Position numbers and translations under genes: made by a program | Assembly (NCBI GenBank): GCA_044868695.1 | Contig: JBIOWP010000084.1 | Location: 11,659 to 75,658 of the forward strand | From: a bacterium | GTDB taxonomy: Bacteria; Sysuimicrobiota; Sysuimicrobiia; Sysuimicrobiales; Kaftiobacteriaceae | Reading direction: 5' to 3' | DNA length: 64,000 nt | Notes under the pieces: model-generated | What the model was told of the DNA's origin: nothing | Databases searched by the model: none | What the model saw: only the letters and a program-made list of their open reading frames with translations | Part shown: positions 4,922 through 64,000 of the stretch, piece after piece | Layout: each line of letters starts with the position of its first letter | Position numbering within the stretch: position 1 is the stretch's first letter

Positions 4922-5565
4922 CAGTCGGTGTCCTGCGGCAGCGAGCCCACCGTGTCCCGGAGGACACGGGCGATCACAGACGTCGAGAATCCGCGGCGTT
5001 CCAGGAGTCCCGCCAGCCGGCGGGCAGCCACCTCGCGGCTCAGGCCGCGGTATCGGCGCAGCCGGCTGCGCGCCACGTCCTGCGCGAGCGCATCCTCGTC
5101 CTGCTCACTGAGACGTTCGCGCAGCGTCCTGTCGATGACCTCCCGCGCGACGCCCTTGCGCGCGAGCTCGTACCGGAGACGGACGCGGCCCGAAGGCTGC
5201 AATGCAGTCCGGCTGCGCACCCAGGCGTCCGCGAAGCGGTGGTCATCCACCAGCCCCGCGTGTTCAAGATCGGTGATGACGGCGGCGACCACCTCAGCGG
5301 GAAGACCCCGCCGGCGCAGCCGGTCGGCCAGTTCCCGGCGGCTGCGGGGGCGGATAGCCAGCAGACGGTAGACGGTTTCTTCTGCCAGCGCCCGCTCTCC
5401 ACGCGCCCGCACCTGCGCGAGCGCGGTCTCGTCAATGTCGGCGCCGGTGGCAAGCCCGAGCGCGTTGACATCCTCCGGCCGCAGGCGAAACGTCCCGCCG
5501 GTGTCCAGCACCACGCGCCGGTGGCCGAGCCGGCCGCGGCTCGGACCGATATGGACGACGTTCAC
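4921..5565 (-). CDS. recX: recombination regulator RecX
   Basis: 214 aa. RecX-like three-repeat helical protein immediately downstream of recA. Confidence 0.85.
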   Translation of the reverse strand: MNVVHIGPSRGRLGHRRVVLDTGGTFRLRPEDVNALGLATGADIDETALAQVRARGERALAEETVYRLLAIRPRSRRELADRLRRRGLPAEVVAAVITDLEHAGLVDDHRFADAWVRSRTALQPSGRVRLRYELARKGVAREVIDRTLRERLSEQDEDALAQDVARSRLRRYRGLSREVAARRLAGLLERRGFSTSVIARVLRDTVGSLPQDTD

Positions 5566-14888: not shown

Positions 14889-15955
14889 TTCTTCAGCGTC
14901 TTCAGGAACTCCTCAAGCTGCTTCTTGTCCTCTGGGACCTTGATCTTCCCGGCGATGATGTCCTTCCGCAGCGCCTCGAGCCGGGCGGCGATGTCCTGCA
15001 CCATCGCCTTGTTGTAGTTGTTGACCGCATAGCCGACCCCGTTCTCCTTCAAGCCGAATGTGCGGACCCCGGCCTTGTACTGGCCGGCGACGGTGGCCTT
15101 GATCGTCTCGTGCACCGCCACGTCGACCCGCTTCAGCATGCTGGTGAGAATCTGCGCCCGCTGGTCCGGCTTGACCGTCAGGGACTGGTCCGCGTCTACG
15201 CCGATGGCCAGCCGCTTCTTCACGACGGCCGCTTCGAACACGCCGATGCCGGTACCGCCGGACGCGTGGTAGATGATGTCGGCGCCCCGGTCGTACTCGG
15301 CCAGCGCGAGCTCCTTGCCTTTGACAGGGTCGCGGAACGCCTCCCCGGTGGTGCCGGCGTATTCGCTGAACACCTCGATGGACGGCTTCACGTACTTGGC
15401 GCCGGCGATGAAGCCGGCCTCAAACTTCTCGATCAGCGGGATCTTCATGCCGCCCACGAATCCGATCTTGTTCGCCCTTGACTTCAGCGCGGCCGCGGCG
15501 CCCACGAGGAACGATCCCTCGTGCTCCTTGAATAGGAGGCTGACCACGTTGGGCTGGTCTCCGATGAACCCGTCTACGATGGCGAACTTGACGCCCGGGA
15601 AATCCTTGGCCACCCGAGTGATGCTGTCCGTGAACAGGAAGCCGATGCCGAAGATGAGGTCAAATTTCTCACCGGCGAGGAGGCGCAGCAGCTCCTCCCG
15701 GTTCTCGCCCCCGGCCGTGGGCTCGAGGTCGCGGGTCTCGATCCGGCTGCCGAATTCCTTCTGGGCGTTCGACAGGCCGGCATACGCCATGTCGTTGAAC
15801 GACAGGTCGCCGCGTCCGCCGACGTCGTACACGATCCCGACCCGCCACTTCTTGGCCTGGGCGACCGCCGGGGTCCCGGGCAGCGCCCATAGAGTGACCG
15901 CGACCACGACCAGCGCCGCAGCCCCGATGCGCATGCCGATTCTCATCCTCAACAC
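14885..15955 (-). CDS. BMP-family (PnrA/Med-like) ABC substrate-binding protein, nucleoside-binding
   Basis: 356 aa. Signal peptide, then the basic-membrane-protein family fold. First gene of the SBP-ATPase-permease-permease-psuK-psuG operon. The true start is probably an ATG a few codons in (AGGTG RBS). Confidence 0.8.
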
Positions 15956-16034
15956 ACCTCCCGTGGGATCACCACTATGTGGATAGAATGGGATTGGTGT
16001 GGGTATCTTCGAGTCGGCGCGGAGGAACTCCTGG

Positions 16035-18305
16035 CTAGGACCGGACGGCGCCGGACTTGATGAGCCGGTCGAGATCTTCCAGCCCGACCAGAATCTCGCG
16101 GGGGTTGCTGCCCTGGGCCGGGCCGACGATGCCCCGCTCCTCGAGCTGGTCTACGATGCGGGCGGCGCGGACGTATCCGATCTTCATCTTCCGCTGCAGC
16201 AGCGACACGGATCCGTAGCCGGCCCGCACCACGAGCCGCGCGGCATCGGCCAGCAGTTCGTCTTCGTCGCTCCCCGCTTCCGGGTTCCCCTGCTCGGACC
16301 GCAGCAGGTCCTGGTCGTACACCGGCTTCCCCTGCGCCTTCCACCAGGCGACCAGGGCCTGGATCTCGCTGTCGGCGATGAAGGCGCCCTGCGCGCGGAC
16401 CGGCCGGGCCGCGCCCATCGGCAGGTACAGCATGTCGCCCTTGCCCAGCAGTTTCTCCGCCCCCGGCATGTCGAGAATGGTCCGGCTGTCCACCTGGCTG
16501 CTCACCGCGAACGCCACCCGCGAGGGAATGTTGGCTTTGATCAGGCCCGTGATCACGTCCACGGACGGCCGCTGGGTCGCCACCACCATGTGGATGCCGG
16601 TGGCCCGGGTCATCTGCGCCAGACGGCAGATGACATCTTCGAAGTCGGCCGGGGCCACCATCATCAGATCCGCCAGCTCGTCGATGATGATGACCACATA
16701 CGGCAGGCGTTCGACGTCGGCCAGCTGGTTGTAGGCCGCGATGTTGCGGGTGCCGGTCGAGGCGAAGCGCTCGAAACGCTCCTCCATTTCCCGCAGCATC
16801 TCCTTCAACGCGCCGGCCGCCGCGCGCGGATTGGTGACCACGGGCGCCAGCAGGTGCGGGATGTTGTTGTAGTTGGCAAACTCCACGCGCTTGGGGTCAA
16901 TCATCAGCAGCCGGACGTGCAGGGGCGTGCAACGGAACAGCAGCCCGGCAATAATCGCATTCAACATCACCGACTTGCCCGACCCGGTGGCGCCCGCGAT
17001 CAGCAGGTGCGGCATCTCGGCCAGGTCGCCCAGGATGGGGTGACCCGCGATGTCTTTGCCCAGCGCGACCACGAGGGGTCCGGCCGTCCGCTGGTAGTCC
17101 TCAGACGACAGGATGTCCTTGATATGGACCAGCGCCGTCTTTTGATTGGGGACCTCGATCCCGACGGCGGACTTGCCGGGGATGGGCGCCTCGATCCGGA
17201 CACTGGGGGCGGCGAGCGCCAGGGCGATGTCGTTGGTGAGGCTGCTGATCTTCTGCACCCGGACGCCGGAGGCGGGCTGCACTTCGAACCGCGTGACGAC
17301 CGGCCCCTGCTCCCACCGGGTGACCTTCGCTTCCACGCCGAAGCTCAAGAGCGTCTGCTCCAGTTGTCTGGCGAGATCGGCGGGATCGGTCTTGGCCTTT
17401 CCCCGTGGCGACGGGAGATCCGCGAGCAGCGTCAGCGGCGGCAGCTGGTATCCGCCTGACGGCACCTCAAGGGCCAGCGTTTCCTGCTTGAACGCCTCGC
17501 TGCGGCGGGCCTCCGCGCATTCCCCGCGATCCTCGTGCGGCGGCGGCGCGGGACTCCGCGCCGGGCGGAGTTCGCCGTTGCGGGGCGCGCCATGCAGTGC
17601 CGGCGGCTCCGCAGTGAGGGGGGCAGGAAGCGAACCGGGCGGTGACACCTCCGGCACCGCCTCCTGGGGATGGCGGAACGCCGACGCGACGGTTCGCGCC
17701 AGCTGCCCCGCGGCGTTCATGGCTTTGAGAATGCTGCCGGCGGCCGCCGCAACGACACCGGCCGCCAGCTGCCACACGGTCGAGACGATACCGGCCAGCG
17801 CCTGCGCCGTCCGGCTGCCGGCCGACACAACGGTCGCCAGCACCGCGGCAAGCGAGGTCCCCGACCACAGCAGCACACCGCCGACGGCGGTAACAGCCAG
17901 GACCAGCCAGGCGCCGGCATCGCCCGACGCGCGGCGCAGCGCCCAGAGCACGACGCCGCCGACCACCCCGCCCGCGCGTCCCGCCGCGCCCGCCGCGAGT
18001 TCCTGGCCGTGCGGGACTTTCATATGGTAGGCGGCGACGGCAGCCAGGGCGACCAGCGCCGCGCCGGCGGCCCGGCGGCCCGGGCGCGAGCGTTCGCCTG
18101 CCAGCAGCAGGGTCACCCCCGCGACCACTGCGGACAGCGGGATCAACCATGCCGCGTCGCCCAGCGCGGTCCGCTGCGCGCGGCCGAGCACGAGCGGGAC
18201 GCCGGTCGCCTCGGGCAAGAACGACAGCGCCAGCATGAGGCCGGCGACCAGGATGAGGGCTCCGGCGGCATGATTCCGGTTGGCGGTTCGTTTCCGGCGC
18301 GGCAC
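16035..18305 (-). CDS. ftsK: DNA translocase FtsK/SpoIIIE
   Basis: 756 aa. N-terminal TM helices, motor domain with AGATGSGKSV, C-terminal gamma winged helix. Confidence 0.9.
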   Translation of the reverse strand: MPRRKRTANRNHAAGALILVAGLMLALSFLPEATGVPLVLGRAQRTALGDAAWLIPLSAVVAGVTLLLAGERSRPGRRAAGAALVALAAVAAYHMKVPHGQELAAGAAGRAGGVVGGVVLWALRRASGDAGAWLVLAVTAVGGVLLWSGTSLAAVLATVVSAGSRTAQALAGIVSTVWQLAAGVVAAAAGSILKAMNAAGQLARTVASAFRHPQEAVPEVSPPGSLPAPLTAEPPALHGAPRNGELRPARSPAPPPHEDRGECAEARRSEAFKQETLALEVPSGGYQLPPLTLLADLPSPRGKAKTDPADLARQLEQTLLSFGVEAKVTRWEQGPVVTRFEVQPASGVRVQKISSLTNDIALALAAPSVRIEAPIPGKSAVGIEVPNQKTALVHIKDILSSEDYQRTAGPLVVALGKDIAGHPILGDLAEMPHLLIAGATGSGKSVMLNAIIAGLLFRCTPLHVRLLMIDPKRVEFANYNNIPHLLAPVVTNPRAAAGALKEMLREMEERFERFASTGTRNIAAYNQLADVERLPYVVIIIDELADLMMVAPADFEDVICRLAQMTRATGIHMVVATQRPSVDVITGLIKANIPSRVAFAVSSQVDSRTILDMPGAEKLLGKGDMLYLPMGAARPVRAQGAFIADSEIQALVAWWKAQGKPVYDQDLLRSEQGNPEAGSDEDELLADAARLVVRAGYGSVSLLQRKMKIGYVRAARIVDQLEERGIVGPAQGSNPREILVGLEDLDRLIKSGAVRS

Positions 18306-23821: not shown

Positions 23822-23857
23822 GGGACTCACCTCCACCCTCAACCCTTCGAGACTGAC

Positions 23858-23937
23858 TGGGGACCAGGGACCGGGGACCGGAGAAAGATGGAGTGCCGTT
23901 CGTCTAATCTGGTCCCTGGTCCCGGGTCCCTGGTCCC
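23858..23937. repeat. tandem-hexamer inverted-repeat hairpin element (GGGACC units), between dapB and the M16 peptidase
   Basis: Left arm tggggaccagggaccggggaccgg, 29-nt loop, right arm ggtccctggtcccgggtccctggtccc. The right arm encodes the last residues (GPGTRDQGPD) of the peptidase. Confidence 0.55.
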
Positions 23938-25253
23938 GCGGGTGTTTTCTGCGCCTTCTCTCCGACGTAGCGCTCGAAGGCTTTCCGCATGCCGGACCGC
24001 AGCGCTCCGTCGGAACGGAACGGGCCGATGGCCGCCATGGACAGCGCTCCGGGGCGGAAGAGGTCGTCGGCGGCGCGTTGCACATCGTCGGCGGTGACGG
24101 CATCGACTTTCGAGATCAACTCGTCGAGCGTGACGTGCCGGCCGTGGTAGATCTCCGATCTGGCCAGCATCGACATCCGGCTGCCGGTGCTCTCCAACCC
24201 CAGCATGAGGCCGCCCTTGAGCGACTCTTTGGCGCGGCGGAGCTCCGCGGCGTCCGGTGGGTGTGCTTTGACCTTCTCGATCTCGTCGATGACGAGGCGG
24301 ATGACCTCGGGGCCGGCATCGGGACTCATCCCGGCATAGATGACGAACAGGCCGCCGTCACGGTACGACGCCGCGTACGACGAGATGCTGTACACCAGCC
24401 CCCGCCGCTCTCGGATCTCCTGGAACAACCGTGAGCTCATGCCGCCGCCCAGCAGGTGGTCCAGGACGGACAGCGCGTAGCGCCGCGGATCCGCCTGGCT
24501 CAGTCCCTGCGTGCCCAGGCATAGGTGGACCTGTTCCGTTTCCTTCGTGCGGGTGGAGAGGCCGGCCTGCGGCTGCGGCGGCGCCTGCGGCACGACGGAC
24601 GCGGCCCCCGCCCACCCGCCGAAGTGAGCGGCGATGAGCGATTCGACCTGCGCGTGTTCCAGCTGCCCGGCCGCGGCAATCACCACGTTGGTAGGCCGGT
24701 AGAACCGCTCGATGTAGGAGAGGAAGTCATCGCGGGTCAGGGCGCCGACGGTCTGCAGGGTGCCGATCACCGGCCGGCCGAGCGGGTGCCTGTTCCACAC
24801 CGTCTGGGCGAGCAGGTCCTGGACCAGCTCATCCGGAGAGTCCTCATAGCTCTTGATCTCCTCGGTGATGACCTGCCGCTCGCGCTCGATGTGTTCCGGG
24901 GTCAGCGTGGAGTGGAGCAGCATGTCCGCGTAGATCTCCAGCGCACGGTCCAGGTGCGTGCTCAGCACCTTCAGATAGAAGACGGTCTGCTCACGATCGG
25001 TGAATGCGTTCATCTGGCCGCCGATGTCGTCGACGGCCTGCGCGATTTCCAGCGCCGACCGCGTCGCGGTGCCTTTGAAGAAGAGATGCTCGAGAAAGTG
25101 TGAGATGCCGTGGTGCTCAGACGGCTCGAAGCGCGAGCCGGCCCCCACCCAGATACCGACGGCGGTCGTGCGGACGTGCGGAATCTGCTCGGTGAGCACA
25201 CGGATGCCGCCCAGCAGCGTGCTCTTGGTGACCGTTCCCGGCGGCGGCTCCAT
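23904..25253 (-). CDS. M16-family zinc peptidase (pitrilysin-like; MlpA/YmxG position)
   Basis: 449 aa. HFLEHLFFKG inverted zincin motif. Downstream of pnp as in Bacillus. Confidence 0.8.
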   Translation of the reverse strand: MEPPPGTVTKSTLLGGIRVLTEQIPHVRTTAVGIWVGAGSRFEPSEHHGISHFLEHLFFKGTATRSALEIAQAVDDIGGQMNAFTDREQTVFYLKVLSTHLDRALEIYADMLLHSTLTPEHIERERQVITEEIKSYEDSPDELVQDLLAQTVWNRHPLGRPVIGTLQTVGALTRDDFLSYIERFYRPTNVVIAAAGQLEHAQVESLIAAHFGGWAGAASVVPQAPPQPQAGLSTRTKETEQVHLCLGTQGLSQADPRRYALSVLDHLLGGGMSSRLFQEIRERRGLVYSISSYAASYRDGGLFVIYAGMSPDAGPEVIRLVIDEIEKVKAHPPDAAELRRAKESLKGGLMLGLESTGSRMSMLARSEIYHGRHVTLDELISKVDAVTADDVQRAADDLFRPGALSMAAIGPFRSDGALRSGMRKAFERYVGEKAQKTPAGPGTRDQGPD

Positions 25254-29956: not shown

Positions 29957-29972
29957 GTGCACGGGCCGGGTG

Positions 29973-30040
29973 TCAGGGGTCGGAGGTCGGCAATGGCGCC
30001 GGGTCCGCTCTGACCCCAGACCCCCGACCCCCGATCCCCA
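29973..30040. repeat. tandem-heptamer inverted-repeat hairpin element (GGGGTCG units) inside the 3' end of nrnA
   Basis: Left arm ggggtcggaggtcgg, 20-nt loop, right arm tgaccccagacccccgacccccgatcccc. The right arm encodes the C-terminal tail of NrnA (GIGGRGSGVRADPAPLPTSDP). Confidence 0.5.
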
Positions 30041-31650: not shown

Positions 31651-31663
31651 GACCGCGACTACA

Positions 31664-31750
31664 GGGAACAAGGGATCGAGGGAACGAGGGAACACGGGAC
31701 CGCCCGACGTGGCTTCCTTGGTTCCCTCGTTCCCTGGTTCCCTCGTTTCC
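31664..31750. repeat. tandem-hexamer inverted-repeat hairpin element (GGGAAC units) in the infB-ylxP intergenic space
   Basis: Left arm gggaacaagggatcgagggaacgagggaacacggg, 15-nt loop, right arm ttccttggttccctcgttccctggttccctcgtttcc. Confidence 0.55.
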
Positions 31751-31754
31751 TGAC

Positions 31755-38076: not shown

Positions 38077-39345
38077 ATGGGTCTCCGTGGTGGACGGTGG
38101 ATGCGAGCGGCGCTCGGCCTCGCCGTCCTGCTCGCGTTGCCGGCGTCGGGCGCCGGGCCGGTGACGGTGACGTTCTGGCACGGCATGAGCGGTGTGCTCC
38201 AGCCGGCCCTCGCCGAGCTCACCGCGGACTTCAACACGCTGAATCCCGGGATCGCCGTGACCGCGCAGTATCAGGGGAACTATCCCACCTTGAACCAGAA
38301 GGTGATTGCCGCGGTGGCCGCCGGCAATCCCCCGACCATCACCCAGCTCTTCCCCAACTGGACGGAGGTGCTGATCCGCGCGAATGCGCTGGTCCCTGTG
38401 GCCAATTTCATTCAGGGAGCCGACGGGCTCTCGGCCGAGAGCCTGAATGACATTCTCCCGATCCTCCGGCAGGAGAACACCTTCGGCGGCGTCCTGTGGA
38501 CCCTGCCGTTCAACAAGAGCGTCTACCTCCTCTTCTACAATGCCGACCTGCTGAAAGAACACCAGCAGAAGGTGCCGCAGACGTGGGACGATCTGGCGAG
38601 CGTCGCCAAGGCGCTGACCAAAGAGGACGGCGGGCGGACGGTGCGGTACGGGTTCGTGGTCCGGCCGACCGTCGAGTACTTCACGACCTTTCTGCTGACC
38701 AACGGCGGCGAGTTCTTCCAGCCCGGCGGGAAGGCGTTTGCGTTCAACAGCCCAGCCGGCGTGGAAGCGCTCCAGTACCTGGTCGACCTGATCGCCCTCC
38801 ACAAGGCCGCGTACGTCCTGCCAGGATTCCCAGATGGAGATTTCGGCGCGGGGAAGACGGCGATGTACATTGCCACCAACCCCGGGCTCGCGTTTGCCAA
38901 AGCCGCGGTCGCCGGCAAGTTCACGATCGGCCTCGCCCCGCTGCCGTACAAACGGGTCCGGTCGACGCTGCTCACCGGGACGAACGTCGGAATCATGGCG
39001 CGGGCCACCCCGGAGCAGCAGGCCGCGGCGTGGAAATACCTCAAGTTCATCACCGGGACCACCGGGACCACCCGGTGGTCACTGCGGACGTTCTACATGC
39101 CGGTCCGCCGGTCGGCCCGCGACTCCACGCTGATGCAGGTCTACCTCCGCGACAATCCCGAGCATCAGGCGGGCCTGGACTCACTGGCGTTCGCCCGTAC
39201 GGATCCCAGCATTGCTGAATGGGAAGAGGTGCGGGACATCGTTGCCGGCGCAGTGGAGGAAGCGGTGCTGGGCAAGAAGACGCCGCGCCAGGCGCTGGAT
39301 GAGGCGACCGCGAAGGCCAACCGCCTGCTGGCGCAGCGCAAGTAG
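38077..39345 (+). CDS. ABC transporter extracellular solute-binding protein, family 1 (carbohydrate type)
   Basis: ATG at 38077 preceded by GGCAGGAGGA. Signal peptide MGLRGGRWMRAALGLAVLLALPASGAGP. Confidence 0.85.
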   Translation: MGLRGGRWMRAALGLAVLLALPASGAGPVTVTFWHGMSGVLQPALAELTADFNTLNPGIAVTAQYQGNYPTLNQKVIAAVAAGNPPTITQLFPNWTEVLIRANALVPVANFIQGADGLSAESLNDILPILRQENTFGGVLWTLPFNKSVYLLFYNADLLKEHQQKVPQTWDDLASVAKALTKEDGGRTVRYGFVVRPTVEYFTTFLLTNGGEFFQPGGKAFAFNSPAGVEALQYLVDLIALHKAAYVLPGFPDGDFGAGKTAMYIATNPGLAFAKAAVAGKFTIGLAPLPYKRVRSTLLTGTNVGIMARATPEQQAAAWKYLKFITGTTGTTRWSLRTFYMPVRRSARDSTLMQVYLRDNPEHQAGLDSLAFARTDPSIAEWEEVRDIVAGAVEEAVLGKKTPRQALDEATAKANRLLAQRK

Positions 39346-40241
39346 TGCGGCCGCGCCGGGTGCGCCGGGCGCGTGAGCATCTGGAAGCCTACGGCTTCCT
39401 GCTGCCGGCCGCGCTCGTGCTGGCCGTCTTCCATCTCCTGCCGATCGCCTACGCATTCTACGTCAGCCTGCTGCGGTGGAACCTTCTCGATCCCGACCGG
39501 CCGTTTGTTGGACTGGACAACTACCGCCAGCTCGCGTCAGACGCCAGGTTTCTCACCGCGCTGTGGAATACGGCGTACTTTGCGGTCGTGTCGGTGGGCG
39601 TGGCCATCCCGCTGGCGTTGGGATGCGCCCTGCTGCTGAACCGCCGGCTGGCGGGGATGTCCGTGTACCGCACGGCGTTCTTTATCCCGTACGTGACGCC
39701 GCTGGCGGCCGCGGCCATGGCGTGGAAGTGGCTCTACCATCCGGACTCCTTCGGCCTGCTCAACACGCTGCTCGGGGCGATCGGGCTCCCTGCGCAGCCG
39801 TGGCTGCTGGATCCGGGGCAGGCAATGCCGGCGGTGATCGCGGTGGCAATCTGGGCCGGGATGGGCCGGGACGTCGTCATCTTCCTCGCTGGGCTGCAGC
39901 ACATTGCGCCCGAATACTACGAGGCGGCGGCGCTGGACGGGGCCGGGACCTGGCAGCGGCTGCGCCACATCACCCTGCCGCTGCTCTCGCCGACGACCTA
40001 TTTCATCCTGCTCATCAGCATGATTGGGGCGTTCAAAGTGTTCGCGCTGCCGCTGTTTCTCACCGACGGGGGGCCGCTGGACCGCACGTTCACCATCGTC
40101 TTCTCCATCTATAGGCAGGGGTTTACGTATTTCCGGATGGGCTACGCCTCGGCGCAGGCGTACGCCCTGTTCGCGATTATCTTCATCCTGACGATGCTGC
40201 AGCGGCGTGTGCTCGCCGGCCGCGTGCACTACGACAGCTGA
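39345..40241 (+). CDS. carbohydrate ABC transporter permease (MalF/UgpA-like)
   Basis: 298 aa. Six TM segments with the EAA loop region. Confidence 0.85.
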   Translation: MRPRRVRRAREHLEAYGFLLPAALVLAVFHLLPIAYAFYVSLLRWNLLDPDRPFVGLDNYRQLASDARFLTALWNTAYFAVVSVGVAIPLALGCALLLNRRLAGMSVYRTAFFIPYVTPLAAAAMAWKWLYHPDSFGLLNTLLGAIGLPAQPWLLDPGQAMPAVIAVAIWAGMGRDVVIFLAGLQHIAPEYYEAAALDGAGTWQRLRHITLPLLSPTTYFILLISMIGAFKVFALPLFLTDGGPLDRTFTIVFSIYRQGFTYFRMGYASAQAYALFAIIFILTMLQRRVLAGRVHYDS

Positions 40242-41053
40242 TGGCGGCCCGGGTGCTCGTGCATGCCGTCCTGCTGGCCGGCGCCGCGGCGATGCTCCTG
40301 CCCTATTACCTGATGGTCGCAACGTCGCTCAAGCCGCTGGGGGAGGTGTTTACCGACCCGTTCACGTGGATCCCGTCCGCCATGGCATGGGAGAACTACG
40401 TTGACGCCTGGACCCACGCGCCGTTTGCCAGGTACTTCTTCAACAGCGCGGTCATCGCGACCGCGGAAACGCTCGGCGTGCTGGTGACCTCGGCGCTCGC
40501 AGCCTACGCCTTTTCCAGGATGCGGTTTGCCGGGCGGGAGCTGCTGTTTGTGCTCTTCTTGGGGACGTTGATGGTGCCGGGGGAGGTGCAGCTGGTGCCC
40601 AATTACATCACGATTACACGCCTGGGGTGGCTCAACACCTATGCCGCGCTGATCGTCCCCTGGCTGGCCAGCGTCTTCGGGATTTTCTTCCTCCGGCAGT
40701 CCTTTGCCACGATCCCCCAAGAGCTCCAGGACGCCGCCACCGTCGACGGCGCGTCGCACCTGACGTTCTTATGGCGTGTGGTGGCGCCGCTCAGCACGCC
40801 GGCGTTCATTACGGTGGCGCTGCTCACCTTTTTGGGATCGTGGAACGCCCTGACCTGGCCGCTGATCGTCACGAATACGCCGGAGATGCGCCCGATCATG
40901 GTCGGCCTCCTGTCGTTCTCCACGGAGTGGGGCACGCAGCCCAGGCTGCTGATGGCGGCCGCGACGTTTTCGACCGCGCCGGTCCTGCTGCTGTTTTTTG
41001 TGCTGCAGCGCTACTTCGTCGAGGGGATTGCCAGGTCGGGGCTCACGCGCTAG
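40241..41053 (+). CDS. carbohydrate ABC transporter permease (MalG/UgpE-like)
   Basis: 270 aa. Start overlaps the previous stop (ATGA). No ATPase gene in the operon, so it probably shares an MsmX-like ATPase. Confidence 0.85.
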   Translation: MAARVLVHAVLLAGAAAMLLPYYLMVATSLKPLGEVFTDPFTWIPSAMAWENYVDAWTHAPFARYFFNSAVIATAETLGVLVTSALAAYAFSRMRFAGRELLFVLFLGTLMVPGEVQLVPNYITITRLGWLNTYAALIVPWLASVFGIFFLRQSFATIPQELQDAATVDGASHLTFLWRVVAPLSTPAFITVALLTFLGSWNALTWPLIVTNTPEMRPIMVGLLSFSTEWGTQPRLLMAAATFSTAPVLLLFFVLQRYFVEGIARSGLTR

Positions 41054-41057
41054 CTGA

Positions 41058-41146
41058 GGGGGAACGCGGGAACGGGGGAACGCGGAAACACGATACGGTC
41101 CGACGTTAGCGCCGCGTTTCCTCGCTTCCACGTTTCCGTGTTTCCG
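41058..41146. repeat. tandem-hexamer inverted-repeat hairpin element (GGGAAC/GGAAAC units) between the convergent sugar permease and bcp
   Basis: Left arm gggggaacgcgggaacgggggaacgcggaaacacg, 20-nt loop, right arm cgcgtttcctcgcttccacgtttccgtgtttccg. The right arm encodes the Bcp C-terminal tail TETRKRGSEETRR. Confidence 0.55.
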
Positions 41147-41606
41147 TTAGTTGTTTCAGCGCCTCCAGCACTGCGGCGCTGTGGCCGCTGACCTGCACCT
41201 TCGGGAACACTTTCACGATCGTCCCGTGCTCGTCGATGATGAACGTCGTCCGCGCGACGCCCCAGTACGTCTTGCCCATCATGGATTTCTCCGCCCAGAC
41301 CCCGTACCGGTTCGCGACGGCATGATCCGTGTCGGCCAGCAATGGGTGAGGAATCCGCAGCTTCTCCTTCCACCTGGCGTGGGACTCCACCGTGTCGGTG
41401 CTCACGCCCAGGATCTCCGCGTGCAGGGTCGTATAGGCCGCGTAGTCGTCACGGAACGCGGTGGCCTCGATGGTTCAGCCGGCCGTGTCATCCCGGACGT
41501 AGAACCACAGCACGACCCTCCTGCCGCGAAAATCCGAGAGTGCCACCCGCCGGCCGTGATCGTCCGTCAGCGTGAACTGCGGAGCCGTTTCGCCTTCTGC
41601 AACCAC
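41106..41606 (-). CDS. Bcp/PrxQ-type peroxiredoxin with in-frame TGA (41475..41477) at the peroxidatic-Cys codon; candidate selenoprotein (PrxU-like), alternatively a nonsense pseudogene
   Basis: Two track ORFs (41475..41723 and 41106..41405) are in the same frame, separated only by the TGA. Joined product: [58 protein letters not shown]...GVSTDTVESHARW...YGVW..MGKTYWGVARTTFIIDEHGTIV. It aligns to E. coli Bcp FYPKAMTPGCTVQACGLRD with the TGA at the Cp position. GTG start at 41606 is preceded by AGGAGGAG. A GC-rich hairpin begins about 10 nt 3' of the UGA. Confidence 0.6.
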
Positions 41607-41674
41607 TGGAGTCTCCTCCTGCGCGCCACGTGCGCGCACGAAGACATTAGACCCGGTCCGGCGAACTCCCTGTC

Positions 41675-42352
41675 GTGATGCGGCCGGACGAAGTCGCGCT
41701 GATCTTTGATCTCGACAACACACTGCTCATGTCCAACATCGACTTCCTGGCGGTGCGCCACCGCCTGATCGATCTCCTCGAGCATGCGGGGGCGGCCGGG
41801 CCGCCCCGCGACGCGCTGGTGCCCCTCGCACTGCCGGAGCTGGTGGCCCTGGGCGCCGCCGCCAGCGCGTCCCTGGCCGACGCGATGTGGGAGGTCATCC
41901 GGCAGGCGGAGCTTGCCGGCCTGGCCGGCGCGACGCTGGACGCGGCGGCCCCCGTCGTGCTTGAGGCGTTCCGCGCCCGCGGGTTCCAGCTCGCGATGCT
42001 GACCAACAACGCCAGCGAGATGCTGGCGGAGGTGCTTGCCACCTTCGGCCTGGCCCAGTACTTTCGTGTGATGGCCGCCCGCGACACCGTGCCGGCGCTC
42101 AAGCCCGCGCCCGACGGGATCCGCCACGTGCTGGCGCAGCTGGCGGGCATCCGCCGCGCCTACATGATCGGCGACGCCTGGATTGACGCGGGCGCCGCAC
42201 ACGCCGCCGGCGTGAGATTCATCGGCGTCGGTCCCAGGCGGGATACCGTGGAAGCGCGGGGGATTCCAATCTGGGCGTGGGCGGACGATCTGTCGGCGCT
42301 GCTGACGCTGGACCTTGTGGGGAAGGCGCGCGACAGGGAGTCGGAGAGTTGA
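41675..42352 (+). CDS. HAD-superfamily hydrolase (phosphoglycolate-phosphatase-like)
   Basis: 225 aa. Motif I IFDLDNTL, motif III K, motif IV GDAWIDAGAA. Confidence 0.8.
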   Translation: MMRPDEVALIFDLDNTLLMSNIDFLAVRHRLIDLLEHAGAAGPPRDALVPLALPELVALGAAASASLADAMWEVIRQAELAGLAGATLDAAAPVVLEAFRARGFQLAMLTNNASEMLAEVLATFGLAQYFRVMAARDTVPALKPAPDGIRHVLAQLAGIRRAYMIGDAWIDAGAAHAAGVRFIGVGPRRDTVEARGIPIWAWADDLSALLTLDLVGKARDRESES

Positions 42353-42421
42353 AGAGTTGGAAAGTTGAAGAGTCAACCAAAAATTCTCGACTGACGTTCC
42401 AACTCTCCAACTTTTCAACTG
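42344..42421. repeat. tandem-heptamer inverted-repeat hairpin element (GAGTTGA units), AT-rich
   Basis: Left arm gagagttgaagagttggaaagttgaagagtc, 21-nt loop, right arm gttccaactctccaacttttcaactg. Lies between the convergent HAD hydrolase and the Cys-rich small gene. Confidence 0.55.
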
Positions 42422-42430
42422 CAGTTCGCG

Positions 42431-45335: not shown

Positions 45336-45338
45336 CGA

Positions 45339-45360
45339 GAGTTGGAGAGTTGGAAAGGCC
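45339..45360. repeat. half-copy of the GAGTTGG repeat element (no inverted partner)
   Basis: gagagttggagagttggaaagg directly after the fbp stop. Related to the 42344..42421 element. Confidence 0.4.
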
Positions 45361-50968: not shown

Positions 50969-51259
50969 ATGGCCAAAGCGATGACGAAGGCGAAGGTTGC
51001 CGACTACCTGGCCGGCAAGCTGGACATCTCCAAGAAGCAAGCCGCCACGTTCCTGGAGGAATTGGCCCAGCTCGCCTACCGGGAGGCGAAGAACGCGTTT
51101 ACCCTTCCCGGGCTGGGCAAGCTCGTGCTGGTGAATCGCAAGGCGCGCATGGGCCGCAACCCGCAGACCGGTGAACCGATCCGCATCCCGGCCAAGCGGG
51201 TGGTCAGGTTCCGTGTGGCCAAGGCTGCGAAGGACGCGATTCTCGGCAACAGCAAGTAG
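50969..51259 (+). CDS. hup: HU-family DNA-binding protein
   Basis: 96 aa. GRNPQTGEPIRIPAKRVVRFRVAKA beta-arm region. AGGAGGGG RBS. Confidence 0.9.
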   Translation: MAKAMTKAKVADYLAGKLDISKKQAATFLEELAQLAYREAKNAFTLPGLGKLVLVNRKARMGRNPQTGEPIRIPAKRVVRFRVAKAAKDAILGNSK

Positions 51260-51284: not shown

Positions 51285-51317
51285 GCGAGCGGGACGTAGG
51301 GTCTACGTCCCGCTCGT
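51285..51317. terminator. strong stem-loop after hup, at the far 3' end of the convergent aspS transcript
   Basis: Perfect 13-bp stem GAGCGGGACGTAG / CTACGTCCCGCTC with a 3-5 nt loop. Followed on the plus strand by gtcacatttcccc (weak T tract). Confidence 0.5.
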
Positions 51318-51542
51318 CACATTTCCCCGCCGTGCCGTGAGGCAGAAGTTCCCGAACCTGCACTAAGCAGGTGGGTGCCCTCCTGGCCGCTCCTGAGATC
51401 CCCGACGTGATGGGGCGTGTCATCGGCGGTCAGAGCCCGGGCTCCCAGTGTATTCGGTGTTGGATCGGAACTATCGGCCCACACGCACACGGCAGGAACC
51501 CTGCTTACGGCCATCGTACGCCCCAGGGCACGAAATTGCAAT

Positions 51543-52877
51543 CTAGGGGTGGAGTCTGGTGGGTCCCCGGTAGATGTAGGTCACCTCGCGGATGCTGGGC
51601 CGGTTGAGCAGGACCATCAGCATACGGCTCAATCCGAACCCGAATCCCCCGTGCGGCGGACACCCATATTTGAAGAAGTCCAGATAGAACTGGATCGGCT
51701 CCAGGCTCAGCCCCGCCTCTTTCGCCTGCGCCACGAGCACGTCGTACCGGTGCTCGCGCTGCGCGCCGGTGCTCATCTCGATGCCGTTCCACAGGAGGTC
51801 GAAGCTCTTGGTGGTCGCCGGCGCGTGGTCGTACCGCATGTGGTAGAAGGCTCTCACAGCGGCCGGGTAGTCGGTGACAAACACGAACTGGTGCCCGAGT
51901 TCCAGGGCGGCGTACTCGCCGATCATCCGCTCCCCGGCCGGGTCGAGGTCGCCCCTGCGCTCCGGCGTGTGCCCGCGCAGGGCGACGATGCGCAGGACCT
52001 CATCCATCGGGATGCGCGGAAACGGGATCTCCGGCACGATGACCTCGGCACCGAACGCCTCCCGGATCTGTGGGCCGAACTCCTCCCGCACGCGCCCCAG
52101 CGCATGCTGCAGCCAGCGTTCTTTGAAGGCCATCACATCCTCATGCGACTCGATCCATGACATCTCCATGTCCACACTGGTGAACTCCGTGGCATGGCGC
52201 GGGGTGAACGACGGGTCGGCGCGGAACGCCGGTCCGATCTCGAAGACACGATCGAACCCGGCGGCCATCGCCATCTGTTTGTAGAATTGCGGGGATTGCG
52301 CCAGATAGGCCGGGCGTCCGAAGTAGTCGAGCGTGAACAACTCGGCTCCCGACTCACTGGCGCTGCCCATCAGCTTCGGCGAGTGGATCTCGATGAACCC
52401 CTCATGGATCCAGAATTCCCGCATCGCGTGCTCGACGGCCGTCTGGACGCGGAAGATGAGCAGATTCTCGGGGTGGCGCAGGTCGAGCATCCGCCAGTTG
52501 AGCCGGACCTCCGGATTTGATTCCTGGGGGCCGGACACGTCAAGCGGGAGCAGGCGGTCGGCCAGTCCCTCGACCCGCAGGTCTCGGATGGCGATCTCGA
52601 CCCCGCCGGTCTTGACGATTGGGTTCTCGACCACCGTGCCGGTCACCGTCACCGCCGACTCGCGGGTGAGGGATGCGATGGTGTTGTTGATGGCGCTCTT
52701 CCCTGGGCTGCGCTCGGTGGTCGCCTGGGCCAGTCCCGTATGGTCGCGGAGGATAAGGAACTGCACGCGTTTCTGGTCCCGGATGGTCCTGACCCACCCG
52801 CAGACTTTCACCTCGCGCCCGACATGCGAGCGGAGGTCTCTGATGAGGGTGCGCCCCATGGCCGGCATCCCGCTCAC
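51543..52877 (-). CDS. aspS: aspartate--tRNA ligase, archaeal/eukaryotic type (class IIb)
   Basis: 444 aa. FEIGPAFRADPSFTPRHATEFTSVDMEMSW and GGFGFGLSRM motifs. Downstream of hisS as in Bacillus. True start is probably the Met at residue 7. Confidence 0.85.
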   Translation of the reverse strand: MSGMPAMGRTLIRDLRSHVGREVKVCGWVRTIRDQKRVQFLILRDHTGLAQATTERSPGKSAINNTIASLTRESAVTVTGTVVENPIVKTGGVEIAIRDLRVEGLADRLLPLDVSGPQESNPEVRLNWRMLDLRHPENLLIFRVQTAVEHAMREFWIHEGFIEIHSPKLMGSASESGAELFTLDYFGRPAYLAQSPQFYKQMAMAAGFDRVFEIGPAFRADPSFTPRHATEFTSVDMEMSWIESHEDVMAFKERWLQHALGRVREEFGPQIREAFGAEVIVPEIPFPRIPMDEVLRIVALRGHTPERRGDLDPAGERMIGEYAALELGHQFVFVTDYPAAVRAFYHMRYDHAPATTKSFDLLWNGIEMSTGAQREHRYDVLVAQAKEAGLSLEPIQFYLDFFKYGCPPHGGFGFGLSRMLMVLLNRPSIREVTYIYRGPTRLHP

Positions 52878-55026: not shown

Positions 55027-55109
55027 CGGAAACGGGAAGCAGGAAGCCCGGAAACGGGAAACGGGAATTGCCTGCCGGGCCGTTTCCCGCTTCCCGTTTC
55101 CCGCTTCCG
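55027..55109. repeat. tandem-heptamer inverted-repeat hairpin element (GGGAAAC/GGGAAGC units) between convergent genes
   Basis: Left arm cggaaacgggaagcaggaagcccggaaacgggaaacggg, 15-nt loop, right arm cgtttcccgcttcccgtttcccgcttccg. Abuts the amidase stop codon. Confidence 0.55.
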
Positions 55110-62456: not shown

Positions 62457-62556
62457 AATCTGTTGAATCTCTTGAATCTGTTGAATCTATTGGATCCAAG
62501 ATTCAATAGATCCAATAGATCCAAAAGATTCGCAGTTCTCTAGATCCAACAGATTC
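62457..62556. repeat. AT-rich tandem-heptamer inverted-repeat element (TTGAATC/TTGGATC units) between the RecQ-like stop and the relA start
   Basis: aatctgttgaatctcttgaatctgttgaatctattggatc | caa | gattcaatagatccaatagatccaaaagattc..tagatccaacagattc. About 30% GC in a roughly 70% GC window. It occupies the relA promoter/leader region. Confidence 0.55.
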
Positions 62557-64000
62557 ACGCCGTTGTTCCCGCGGTCGGTCCGGCTACCGCTTTTAGGATG
62601 TCGGTCAGCGGGCCGAAGGCCCAGCGGCTCACGTCGGCCAGGGCCTGCGCTTCGCGACGGCCTTCGGCGTACCGCAGCGACGTGGTTAAGTCCCGGCGCT
62701 CCTGCCCGGCGGGCGTAATGCGCCACCGCTCTCCATCGTACTCCCGCTGGACCGCCCCTGCCTCGGCCAAGATGTCCAGTGCGATGCCGGCGGTCCTGGG
62801 TGAGACCCCTGCGGCCTCCAGCGCCGTCCGCACCGTTTCATCCGGCCACTGCGCGGCGCCCGCCCGCTCAACTTCTTCGCGGACCACTCGATAGACCGCC
62901 GCCAGGGTCTCCCGATTCGGATGGTCCTGGTCCAGGATCACTGCCGTCGCCGCGAGATCCTCCTTCCGATATAACAACGTCACCGTGGCCTGCCGTCCAT
63001 CCAATCCGGCCGACCCGATGACCTCAAGGAAATCCCCCCGGTGCACCGGCAGCCCGGCCACGGCGGCCTGCCGGATGTCCGCGGGTGCGGCCTCGGCGGT
63101 GAATCCGTCCGACGCCACGAGCACCGAAATCTTGCCGTCCGCAAACAACTGCTCAACGACCTCCCGCACCCGGACGGGGAGTCCTCCGTGGTAATAGGCG
63201 ACCGGCCCGTGTGTCGTGTCGCGCAGCCGGGCCGCGACCGCAACGGCCTCCGCCCTGGTGCCGGCGTAGATCAGCGTCTTCTCCCCGCGGCCGACAATCG
63301 CCGCGAGCGCGGCGTCGCGGTCCACCGTGCCCCGCCGGTCGATCAGCCGGAGGTTTACGCGCAGGAAGGCATCGGTGATGACCTCACCGTGTTCCGGCTG
63401 CGGTCCCCCTCCGGAGGATGCAAACAGGCCCCACTGGGAGACCCCCGGCGCGTGCACGGCCGCCTCCAGCGGGTTATTCTCCATTGTAGGGTCGCAATCT
63501 CCGAGAAGCAAAGACGCGCGCAGTGGGGGCGTCCCGGCCCGCAAGTATTCCGCGCTAGCCAGGACGACGTCCACCGATCCGGCCTGCAGCGCCTGCAGCA
63601 GATGCTGGCGGGCGCGGAAGCGCAGGGCGCCGTGGGCGCGGGCGCAGCGCACGCCGATCTCCCGCAGGCCTGCGGCCAGCCGTTCGTACCACCGGTCCAC
63701 CTGGGACTGCAGAGGAACCGCGATGACCACCGGACCCCGGCCGGAGATCACCCAGCAGGCCGCGGCAATCCCAATGATGGCCCGCCGTCCGCGCCCCGGA
63801 CCGAAGATGCCCCGGATCGGCCGGCCATCGAGGATGGCCTTGATCGCGGCGAATTGGGGATCGCGCAGGCGGCGTCCACGATGCAGGTGGACGCGGACCC
63901 GCTCGATAACGTCCGCCGCCGGCAGCTCCCTCCAGGCGAGTCGAAGAGCCCCGCCCGGGTCAGGCTCATCGGCGGGACCATCGTGGCGCTGGATGTGGAT
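62555..64000 (-). CDS. RecQ-family helicase homologue with degenerate ATPase motifs; partial, 5' end beyond the window
   Basis: Minus-strand frame is open from 64000 to 62555. It aligns to RecQ across the whole core: FRPGQ-like LRDPQFAAIKAILDGRP; Walker A position GPGRGRRA (RecQ PTGGGKSL); DEAH position LEAAVHAPGVSQWG (RecQ VDEAHCISQWG); helicase-C block IYAGTRAEAVAVAARLRD..YYHGGL..VLVASDGF; motif VI EVIGSAGLDG (RecQ QETGRAGRDG). The track ORF 62555..63751 starts at an internal GTG. Confidence 0.7.
   Translation of the reverse strand: MHIQRHDGPADEPDPGGALRLAWRELPAADVIERVRVHLHRGRRLRDPQFAAIKAILDGRPIRGIFGPGRGRRAIIGIAAACWVISGRGPVVIAVPLQSQVDRWYERLAAGLREIGVRCARAHGALRFRARQHLLQALQAGSVDVVLASAEYLRAGTPPLRASLLLGDCDPTMENNPLEAAVHAPGVSQWGLFASSGGGPQPEHGEVITDAFLRVNLRLIDRRGTVDRDAALAAIVGRGEKTLIYAGTRAEAVAVAARLRDTTHGPVAYYHGGLPVRVREVVEQLFADGKISVLVASDGFTAEAAPADIRQAAVAGLPVHRGDFLEVIGSAGLDGRQATVTLLYRKEDLAATAVILDQDHPNRETLAAVYRVVREEVERAGAAQWPDETVRTALEAAGVSPRTAGIALDILAEAGAVQREYDGERWRITPAGQERRDLTTSLRYAEGRREAQALADVSRWAFGPLTDILKAVAGPTAGTTA

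Follow-up and report, generated by a model that had tools for sequence, protein, structure and literature searches.

The repeats closest to those reported here are the GGGAATC heptamers of Xanthomonas, which occur as approximately 186 arrays per genome, most of them of about four units, and which include approximately 70-75 inverted pairs per genome (Rehm et al. 2015, PLoS One, PMC4692102). Those arrays are 89-93% intergenic, lie a mean of 28 nt after the upstream open reading frame (ORF), and are rare between divergent genes; they vary in length and sequence between species while usually keeping their paired or single type, they form G-quadruplexes (G4) in vitro, and their function is unknown (PMC4692102). 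Tandem heptamers have also been recorded in cyanobacteria and in the Beggiatoaceae; Anabaena is reported to have "only a few paired repeats", and of 169 sets in Maribeggiatoa a single one was an indirect repeat (PMC4692102, PMC4679880). The paper describing the phylum Sysuimicrobiota does not mention repeats, and our literature searches on ANGP1, on short tandemly repeated repetitive (STRR) sequences and hairpins, and on GGGAATC found nothing closer than the Xanthomonas report. Here we analyze a stretch of 64,000 nucleotides from a metagenome-assembled genome of Candidatus Sysuimicrobiota that resembles the Segetimicrobiaceae (assembly GCA_044868695.1, contig JBIOWP010000084.1, positions 11,659 to 75,658; hereafter the window), for which an original prediction made from the sequence alone had proposed that three gene ends carry hairpins whose arms are tandem copies of a GGGAAC unit. 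These tandem hairpins are a real, non-random feature that is richer than first described, and they represent a variant of a kind of repeat that is known but has not been explained, with dynamics that can here be seen directly.

Hairpins with tandem GGGAAC arms are present at all three loci, each with a left array, a spacer, and a complementary right array.

H3, positions 31662 to 31752: GGGAAC-family hairpin, period 8, approximately 37 bp, between the infB stop codon (31755) and the DUF503 (ylxP) start codon (31650), both genes on the minus strand
H4, positions 41058 to 41147: GGGAAC-family hairpin, period 8, between a convergent ABC permease gene (plus strand, ending at 41053) and bcp (minus strand)
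H7, positions 55027 to 55109: GGGAAC-family hairpin (units GGAAACG/GGGAAGC), period 7, between convergent NTP_transferase (plus strand) and amidase (minus strand) genes

The arms of H3 consist of four to five copies of AGGGAACN on the left and four to five copies of the complementary GTTCCCNN on the right, with a spacer between them; the arms of H4 are made of GGGAACGC-type units; and H7 fills the 87-nt NTP_transferase/amidase spacer completely. Both arms of all three elements are detected by Tandem Repeats Finder and, since the arms are tandem, a repeat search pairs them as inverted repeats in several registers that lie one unit (8 nt) apart. RNA folding of H3 yields -63.9 kcal/mol for the plus strand and -59.4 kcal/mol for the minus strand (z = -7.0 and -6.0), and H7 yields -54.9 and -62.5 kcal/mol for its two strands (z = -5.2 and -6.8). 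The fold of H4 is weaker, at -50.2 and -38.5 kcal/mol (z = -2.5 and -1.1). Stems of the tandem hairpins contain 27-37 pairs and their arms are multi-unit arrays of 25-45 nt. The non-repeat stretch between the arrays measures 20-35 nt, and because its inner part pairs too, the loops of the minimum free energy structures are just 3-6 nt long. The flanking genes named earlier agree with Pfam (IF-2/DUF503, ABC permease/AhpC-TSA (bcp), and NTP_transferase/amidase), with the true start of the NTP_transferase gene lying two codons 3' of the long-ORF start. The original prediction was likewise right to call the tandem-unit construction unusual, to see one architecture in the three loci, and to place it at gene 3' ends.

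As a description of the window, however, a GGGAAC-only family is too narrow. It is real, but it is one of at least five to six unit families, and the window holds eight elements, with more in relatives. At least five further elements of the window share the architecture and are built from other units, namely GGGGACC, GGGGTC, GAGTTGGA and AATCTGTTG.

H1, positions 23855 to 23938: GGGGACC-unit hairpin, period 7, between the peptidase M16 gene and dapB, both on the minus strand
H2, positions 29968 to 30039: GGGGTC/GACCCC-unit hairpin, period 7, at the DHH (nrnA-like)/truB junction, within the last approximately 22 DHH codons
H5, positions 42329 to 42430: GAGTTGRA-unit hairpin, period 8, between a convergent HAD hydrolase gene (plus strand) and a gene for a 132-aa hypothetical protein (minus strand)
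H6, positions 45337 to 45358, plus strand: 2.5 tandem GAGAGTTG units with no partner array, following the FBPase gene
H8, positions 62457 to 62560: AATCTGTTG-unit hairpin, period 9, between a RecJ-like/helicase gene and relA/spoT, both on the minus strand

Seven of the eight elements are paired, and H6 is probably the remnant of a full hairpin. In H8 the loop is nearly absent and one side carries an additional partial array. Periods range from 7 to 9, with 2.5-5.6 copies per arm, as measured by Tandem Repeats Finder and a purpose-built detector. We refer to the unit families by the letters A (GGGAAC) to F. The G-rich arm is the 5' arm throughout families A, B, D and F, and families C and E show the opposite polarity. 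G3 tracts are missing from three families, B (GAGTTGGA), C (GTCTWCCAG) and E (AATCTGTTG), which nevertheless share the same architecture and position.

Chance is excluded as the source of these hairpins. A strict detector that calls two complementary tandem arrays of equal period no more than 60 nt apart found five pairs in the window (six under relaxed thresholds), none in each of 40 dinucleotide shuffles of it, and none across 1.42 Mb from 80 loci of other genomes. A first version that demanded clean arrays overlooked degenerate cases (H4 and the infB junction in the relative L001; relatives' sequences are designated by L numbers throughout). A scan that began from hairpins was uninformative without a periodicity filter, because sequence of 68% GC folds everywhere; requiring periodicity of both arms made it effective. 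With up to two mismatches, GGGAACNNGGGAAC has 22 matches against 8.3 ± 2.8 expected, and 17 of the 22 lie within tandem hairpins. Across 169 kb of the clade's array-bearing genomes, arrays with periods of 7-9 number 2.43 per 10 kb, against 0.15 per 10 kb in controls (1.37 Mb), 0.16 in high-GC controls, and 0.15 in the sister genomes L002, L003, L082 and L088, from which the array-bearing genomes thus differ approximately 16-fold. A known structured RNA was also ruled out, since a scan of the window with Rfam at gathering thresholds matched 6S RNA alone and none of the tandem hairpins.

The genes of the window are tightly packed in DNA of 68% GC, and the arrays are distributed unevenly among the spacers that separate them. 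Arrays occupy four of the four clear convergent spacers (H4, H5, H6 and H7) versus none of the five divergent ones (Fisher p = 1/126, by our own arithmetic). They also occupy four of approximately ten co-directional spacers (H1, H2, H3 and H8), each time abutting or overlapping the upstream stop codon; contact or overlap with a stop codon holds for all arrays of the window. Several elements extend into coding sequence: the stop codon of the HAD gene, TGA, sits in the left arm of H5, the tail of the M16 ORF enters the right arm of H1, and the right arm of H4 encodes approximately the last 14 codons of bcp. ORF tails read from hairpin arms lie at 23904-23970 (M16), 29973-30040 (DHH/nrnA-like), 41106-41150 (Bcp) and 42320-42352 (HAD). 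These tails have no counterpart in orthologs, with alignments ending 11-23 residues before the end of the ORF; the M16 protein aligns with its ortholog up to residue 428 of 449, and the DHH protein up to residue 321 of 342. This lack of conservation fits arrays growing over stop codons and, as far as the alignments can tell, repeat growth appears to have overrun the original ones. Ordinary compact hairpins are found elsewhere in the window, after rpsO and at approximately 51285-51320, downstream of a gene ending at 51259. The tandem hairpins had also been suggested to be a specialized terminator family. This is unsupported as far as canonical intrinsic terminators are concerned, which we ruled out: the tails of the elements have no T-run, a consensus scan for a stem followed by a T-run misses them, and several are situated inside operons, as at infB-ylxP.

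The window was compared with three same-species assemblies, two NCBI metagenome-assembled genomes (GCA_044870075.1 and GCA_044867385.1) and one Logan assembly, which are 99.55-99.74% identical to it over approximately 31 kb. H4, H5 and H7 are unchanged in every same-species assembly covering them (two to four per site, including the window), with H4 identical in strain L085 and H7 identical in L094, L095 and L096. Therefore, these elements are not assembly artefacts. The comparison revealed four length differences, three of which are in tandem arrays, the fourth being a 1-nt indel. At H6, L085 and L095 carry exactly one extra 8-nt unit, GAGAGTTG. In the right arm of H8, L094 is without exactly one 9-nt unit, CAATAGATC (62504-62512). 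The third difference concerns a whole hairpin.

Empty site, positions 51535 to 51545: L094 has a 172-nt tandem hairpin of period-9 AATCTNTTG units at 51541, between the aspS stop codon and the 6S RNA; the window and L095 are without it

In L094 the flanks of this 172-nt element read ..CCCCTAGAT|CACAGC...CCTGAT|TTGCAA.., with GAT microhomology. The distant relative L098 (82% protein identity) carries a hairpin of the same family at the aspS/6S site, and for this reason the window most likely lost its copy by deletion, to judge from the aligned sites. Between L086 and L087 there is likewise a difference of one 8-nt unit at the H6 site. Judged by these comparisons, strains differ from one another chiefly through slippage.

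Changes over longer distances were followed by mapping synteny with tblastn and extracting the corresponding spacers from relatives. The closest InfB sequences are 75-77% identical and come from uncultured soil metagenome-assembled genomes that include "Bacillati bacterium ANGP1", whose proteins are named Candidatus Segetimicrobium genomatis, of the phylum Candidatus Sysuimicrobiota (formerly CSP1-3). A metagenome scan with the HAD protein gave four loci, two of them informative, and the L085 row was disregarded in one alignment in which its segment was wrongly placed. The junctions compare as follows.

infB/ylxP: window, period-8 AGGGAACG; L001 and L086, period-8 GGGCRGTC hairpin; L002, L003, L004, L082 and L093, plain hairpins or nothing
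Downstream of bcp: window, period-8 GGGAACGC; L001, period-7 GCAGAAC hairpin; L003, L081 and L086, plain hairpin or none
HAD/132-aa hypothetical: window, period-8 GAGTTGRA; L001, L086, L087 and L090, period-9 GTCTWCCAG hairpin; L003, L082 and L088, nothing
FBPase 3' end: window, 2.5 GAGAGTTG units; L086 and L087, full period-8 hairpin (RAGTTGGA); L092, four copies of GCGTTGGA; L093, approximately ten direct GCAGATTGA units
NTP_transferase/amidase: window, period-7 GGGAAC family; L098 and L099, period-8 GCGGTCGN hairpin; L097, plain hairpin
RecJ/relA: window, full hairpin with 3' arm ACAGATTCA; L098 and L099, four direct copies of GTAGACCGG; L097, GTAGATTGG-type units

Given junctions keep their arrays in array-bearing genomes even at approximately 80-85% protein identity, while the unit, the period and the presence of a partner all change; where a pair exists, its arms are always complementary. 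The presence/absence differences among related genomes that had been expected are borne out, and orthologous spacers differ in unit and period as well. At the RecJ/relA junction the inverted partner is found in the window only, and its 3' arm is located exactly where L097, L098 and L099 have their direct, unpaired arrays. At the HAD junction, L083 and L091 hold a 36-nt remnant with one or two GTCTWCCAG units, L093 holds GGAACGTC units, and the close relative L090 has family C where the window has family B; the flank CGCG(C)AACTGC is common to the window and L090, and divergence begins exactly at the start of the array. No tandem hairpin is present in the ortholog L002 at the M16/dapB (H1) and DHH/truB (H2) junctions. 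Several families recur. Family A is found at H3, H4, H7 and the H5 site of L093; family C at the H5 site, the 3' end of cca and the H8 site; and family E at H8, the aspS site and the H6 site of L093. Intermediates also connect families, as the units of L097 stand between C and E, and D is like F plus one base. The loop of H3 keeps CGTCGGGCGGTC, a 12-mer that is also found within the family-D arm at the infB/ylxP junction of L001. A supposedly conserved loop motif, CGACGT, which seemed common to H3, H4 and H5, was dropped, as it is not in the loops of L001, L086 or L098.

The spacer 3' of aspS also holds arrays in L092 (1795-1908) and L093 (1641-1740), relatives at 85% ParA identity. Six to seven purine-rich GGGAARA units are followed there by partly complementary CGYTYCAA arrays, a more irregular form of the tandem-array phenomenon.

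With moderate confidence, we place the GGGAAC elements in a class of intergenic hairpins that is specific to the lineage and hypervariable, made of inverted pairs of simple sequence repeats (7-9-nt units, three to five copies per arm) and remodeled by slippage, whose function would be that of RNA stem-loops at 3' ends. That the strain differences consist mostly of single units and whole hairpins is what identifies the elements as hypervariable inverted pairs of long-unit repeats remodeled in this way. Single units are gained or lost one arm at a time, whole hairpins can be deleted between flanking microhomologies, and, on the evidence of the aligned orthologous spacers, unit sequence and even period turn over at a fixed junction while the arms stay complementary. 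Replication slippage most likely drives the gain and loss of single units. Since Tandem Repeats Finder reports higher identity at double-unit periods (14, 16 and 18), arrays may grow by two-unit duplications. Template switching is able to create and maintain hairpins and can produce perfect stems in one step (PMC8794818, PMC7202029). The observed pattern suggests that arm-to-arm template switching makes the inverted partner and re-matches the arms after slippage, and there are hints that copying between sites may occasionally occur as well. When transcribed from either strand, the elements would form stem-loops of 30-37 bp without U-tracts at mRNA 3' ends, and such structures could pause RNA polymerase or terminate it inefficiently, block 3'-to-5' exonucleases, or act as processing sites, in line with the proposals made for REP/BIME elements. 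A single hairpin might serve both strands between convergent genes, and selection would exclude arrays from promoter-bearing spacers. A role as a 3'-end RNA stem-loop without a U-tract is possible.

Several observations weigh against this interpretation. At the four co-directional sites there is no preference for the sense strand in either fold energy or G.U counts; the sense strand of H1, for example, folds at -48.8 kcal/mol and the antisense strand at -64.6 kcal/mol. This is no less compatible with a symmetric process at the level of DNA than with selection on RNA. Unpaired arrays at similar sites (H6, the H6 site of L092, and the H8 site of L097 and L098) indicate that pairing is not obligatory, and sister genomes that have short plain hairpins or no spacer at these junctions indicate that the elaborate form is dispensable. 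Furthermore, a limited set of unit families turns up again at junctions that are not orthologous, the family at a junction may not be the one that a close relative has there, the loops of H3 and H4 are similar, and a 13-mer consisting of flank and first unit, AACTAACGGAAAC, occurs at the ends of H4 and H7 and nowhere else in the window (0.02 expected). Slippage in situ, by itself, leaves the family recurrence, the family replacement and the shared loop and terminus unexplained.

These last features are what a non-autonomous mobile family would predict, in which whole hairpins of the miniature inverted-repeat transposable element (MITE) or REPIN type were copied into gene-end spacers by a transposase or by ectopic conversion, with slippage acting only afterwards. 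Families A, C and E each occupy several junctions within or between genomes, close relatives have different families at one junction, their sequences parting exactly where the array starts, and the 172-nt element is present or absent between strains. Insertions of the Correia and RPE types overrun stop codons, as the tandem arrays do. We nevertheless regard mobility of this kind as unlikely. No target-site duplication was found, and the polymorphic site at 51541 shows GAT microhomology only and is occupied by the element in the distant relative L098 as well, which points to deletion. No terminus or loop is common to all members, and even family A has a period of 7 in one element and 8 in others. 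The intermediates that link families (L097 between C and E; D versus F) are as gradual unit drift predicts, and the FBPase and relA arrays are orthologous and differ by unit drift only, the flanking proteins being 82-93% identical to those of the window. No transposase is linked to any element in the window or in the flanks examined. The earlier suggestion of a REP/MITE-like family is therefore only weakly supported: the H3/H4 loops, the 13-mer of H4 and H7, and the different families at one junction in close relatives speak for it, and the missing target-site duplications and common terminus, the two periods, the unit drift at a fixed junction, and strain changes that amount to single-unit gains and losses and one whole-hairpin deletion speak against it. 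A related and still more doubtful proposal is that the elements are self-propagating, with the families (GGGAACG, GAGTTGGA, GTCTWCCAG, GCGGTCGN and AATCTNTTG) copied between 3'-end spacers across the Segetimicrobiaceae and doubling as terminators or RNA stabilizers that have no U-tract. Copying would then act on the hairpins themselves, for instance through a transposase that recognizes single-stranded DNA hairpins, or through template switching or conversion where replication or transcription ends. If true, this would account for the recurrence of families, for the exchange of families at a single junction between near-identical relatives, and for the loop and terminus shared among H3, H4 and H7.

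The opposite possibility is that the hairpins have no function and are a neutral by-product of slippage and template switching that, for units of 7-9 nt, would be unusually frequent in this lineage, piling up where they do no harm, downstream of genes. The enrichment is specific to the lineage and missing at the same junctions in sister genomes, neither strand is favored as the sense strand, some arrays are unpaired or decayed (H6; the remnants in L083 and L091), a whole hairpin was lost in one strain with no obvious consequence, and arrays spill into ORF tails. The avoidance of divergent spacers would need just purifying selection on promoters, an argument that has also been made for Xanthomonas (PMC4692102). 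Even so, complementary arms have been kept at four junctions despite complete turnover of the unit, all convergent spacers of the window are occupied, and plain hairpins at the same junctions in L003 and L097 suggest that some stem-loop is wanted there, which the tandem form would be one means of providing. On balance, we think it rather improbable that the elements are entirely neutral, though this is easier to entertain than mobility. Finally, the arrays could matter for their sequence, as protein-binding sites or as G4 tracts to which the hairpin is incidental. Five GGG tracts lie 5 nt apart in the 5' arm of H3 and four G4-5 tracts 3 nt apart in the sense arm of H2, the G-rich arm is consistently 5' in four families, and G4 formation in vitro is known for the related repeats GGGAATC and GGGGA(C/T)T (PMC4692102). 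Against this speak families B, C and E, whose units have no G3 tract and which share architecture and position, the reversed polarity of C and E, and a unit and period that change at a fixed junction, which would be hard to square with a dedicated binder. We consider a sequence-specific role very improbable, and for the protein-binding array that the original prediction had mentioned as an option there is no evidence; the variety of units speaks against one binder.

Some features of neighboring genes deserve mention in their own right. The bcp gene beside H4 (AhpC-TSA; 41106-41723, minus strand) is a single frame with one in-frame TGA (41475-41477) at the position of the peroxidatic Cys (..WFYVRDDTAG-U-TIEATAF..). 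The placement of this codon at the catalytic position ruled out a frameshifted pseudogene, and the sequence probably encodes a selenocysteine-containing Bcp; gene callers split it into two in all relatives. On the other side of H4, the two ABC permease genes (39345-41053) are missing in the close relatives L081, L086 and L087, in which the gene for the solute-binding protein adjoins bcp, and the whole transporter is missing in L001, L003 and L092, so that the operon is a variable insertion. Directly 3' of aspS, the 6S/SsrS RNA (51320-51501, minus strand) is a full-length match of 79 bits. Among the relatives, L087 alone has an IS256-type transposase (Transposase_mut/MULE; 15267-16469) between lysS and rimP, adjoining no tandem hairpin. 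L002 has a 150-bp tandem duplication (5023-5322; two copies, 95% identical) between nusA and the annotated infB match, probably within the N-terminal region of IF-2.

Intergenic arrays of 7-9-nt units, inverted pairs included, have been recorded for years in Xanthomonas and cyanobacteria without explanation. The Sysuimicrobiota lineage is more informative, as it offers coexisting unit families, graded relatives at orthologous junctions, and changes between strains that are more than 99.5% identical. What recurs across families and orthologous junctions in the array-bearing genomes is the hairpin architecture; the unit sequence and the G4 potential do not. This makes it testable, in an abundant soil phylum, whether such arrays are functional 3'-end structures or mutational debris, and how long perfect stems originate and persist. 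The importance of the elements would rise if they proved mobile or set mRNA 3' ends. In practical terms, they break short-read assemblies, give predicted proteins spurious C-terminal tails, and provide natural markers of variable unit number with which Sysuimicrobiota strains could be tracked in soil metagenomes. Short-read contigs of relatives end in or right beside tandem hairpins (L090, 1620-1774; L081, 1735-1856), and the hairpins probably fragment metagenome assemblies of the lineage.

Among known systems, the REP, BIME and REPIN elements of Proteobacteria are many-copy short extragenic palindromes at gene 3' ends and inside operons that have been proposed to act as mRNA stabilizers or attenuators. 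Repetitive extragenic palindromic (REP) sequences are conserved, single imperfect palindromes of 20-40 nt that bear a GTAG/CGTC tag, are linked to RAYT transposases and have no tandem units. The tandem hairpins resemble them in their 3'-end and intra-operon placement and in forming family-like groups. They differ in their variable units and in having no common tetranucleotide tag at the termini read, and no RAYT (IS200/IS605-like Y1) transposase is in view within the 64 kb and its flanks. As for the hallmarks of MITEs, there is no target-site duplication at 51541, and at H5 flank conservation extends right to the array, though the relatives have another array in that place. Homology between copies beyond the unit is confined to the H3/H4 loop and the H4/H7 13-mer; otherwise the unit alone is common, and the period differs. 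Intrinsic terminators are similar in placing a stable stem-loop right after a stop codon, and there too one hairpin can serve both strands between convergent genes. The stems described here, at 27-37 bp, are much longer than usual, are not followed by a U-tract, and in several cases lie within one operon. By the features tested, then, the elements are not canonical intrinsic terminators, REPs or MITEs. Quasipalindrome template-switch mutagenesis copies one arm onto the other and can make a reverse-complement repeat in one step (PMC7202029, PMC8794818), but it is a mechanism and not a class of element, and here it is suggested by the overall pattern, whereas the strain changes seen are unit changes in a single arm.

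The cyanobacterial STRR sequences of Nostoc and Anabaena (GGGGA(C/T)T) and the TAACTGA repeats of the Beggiatoaceae are closer, being abundant intergenic 7-nt arrays near gene ends (PMC4692102, PMC4679880), and the cyanobacterial unit GGGGACT resembles the H1 unit GGGGACC. These repeats are reported to be mostly unpaired direct arrays, whereas the inverted pair is dominant here. The closest match is provided by the GGGAATC arrays of Xanthomonas. The G-rich 7-nt unit of those arrays is very near to GGGAAC(G); both systems have at least two tandem copies of a 6-9-nt unit, and both form inverted stem-loop pairs that lie near the end of the upstream ORF, are rare between divergent genes, and vary at conserved junctions. 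Unlike the single genome-wide G-rich unit of Xanthomonas, a member of the Pseudomonadota, the Sysuimicrobiota elements comprise at least five to six families with periods of 7-9, several of which are not G4-capable; here, moreover, the family at a junction differs between close relatives, and polymorphisms are seen between strains that are more than 99.5% identical. Thus, the Sysuimicrobiota elements share each defining feature of the Xanthomonas arrays except the single G-rich unit and, since several families have no G-tracts, the hairpin rather than the G-quadruplex is the common denominator.

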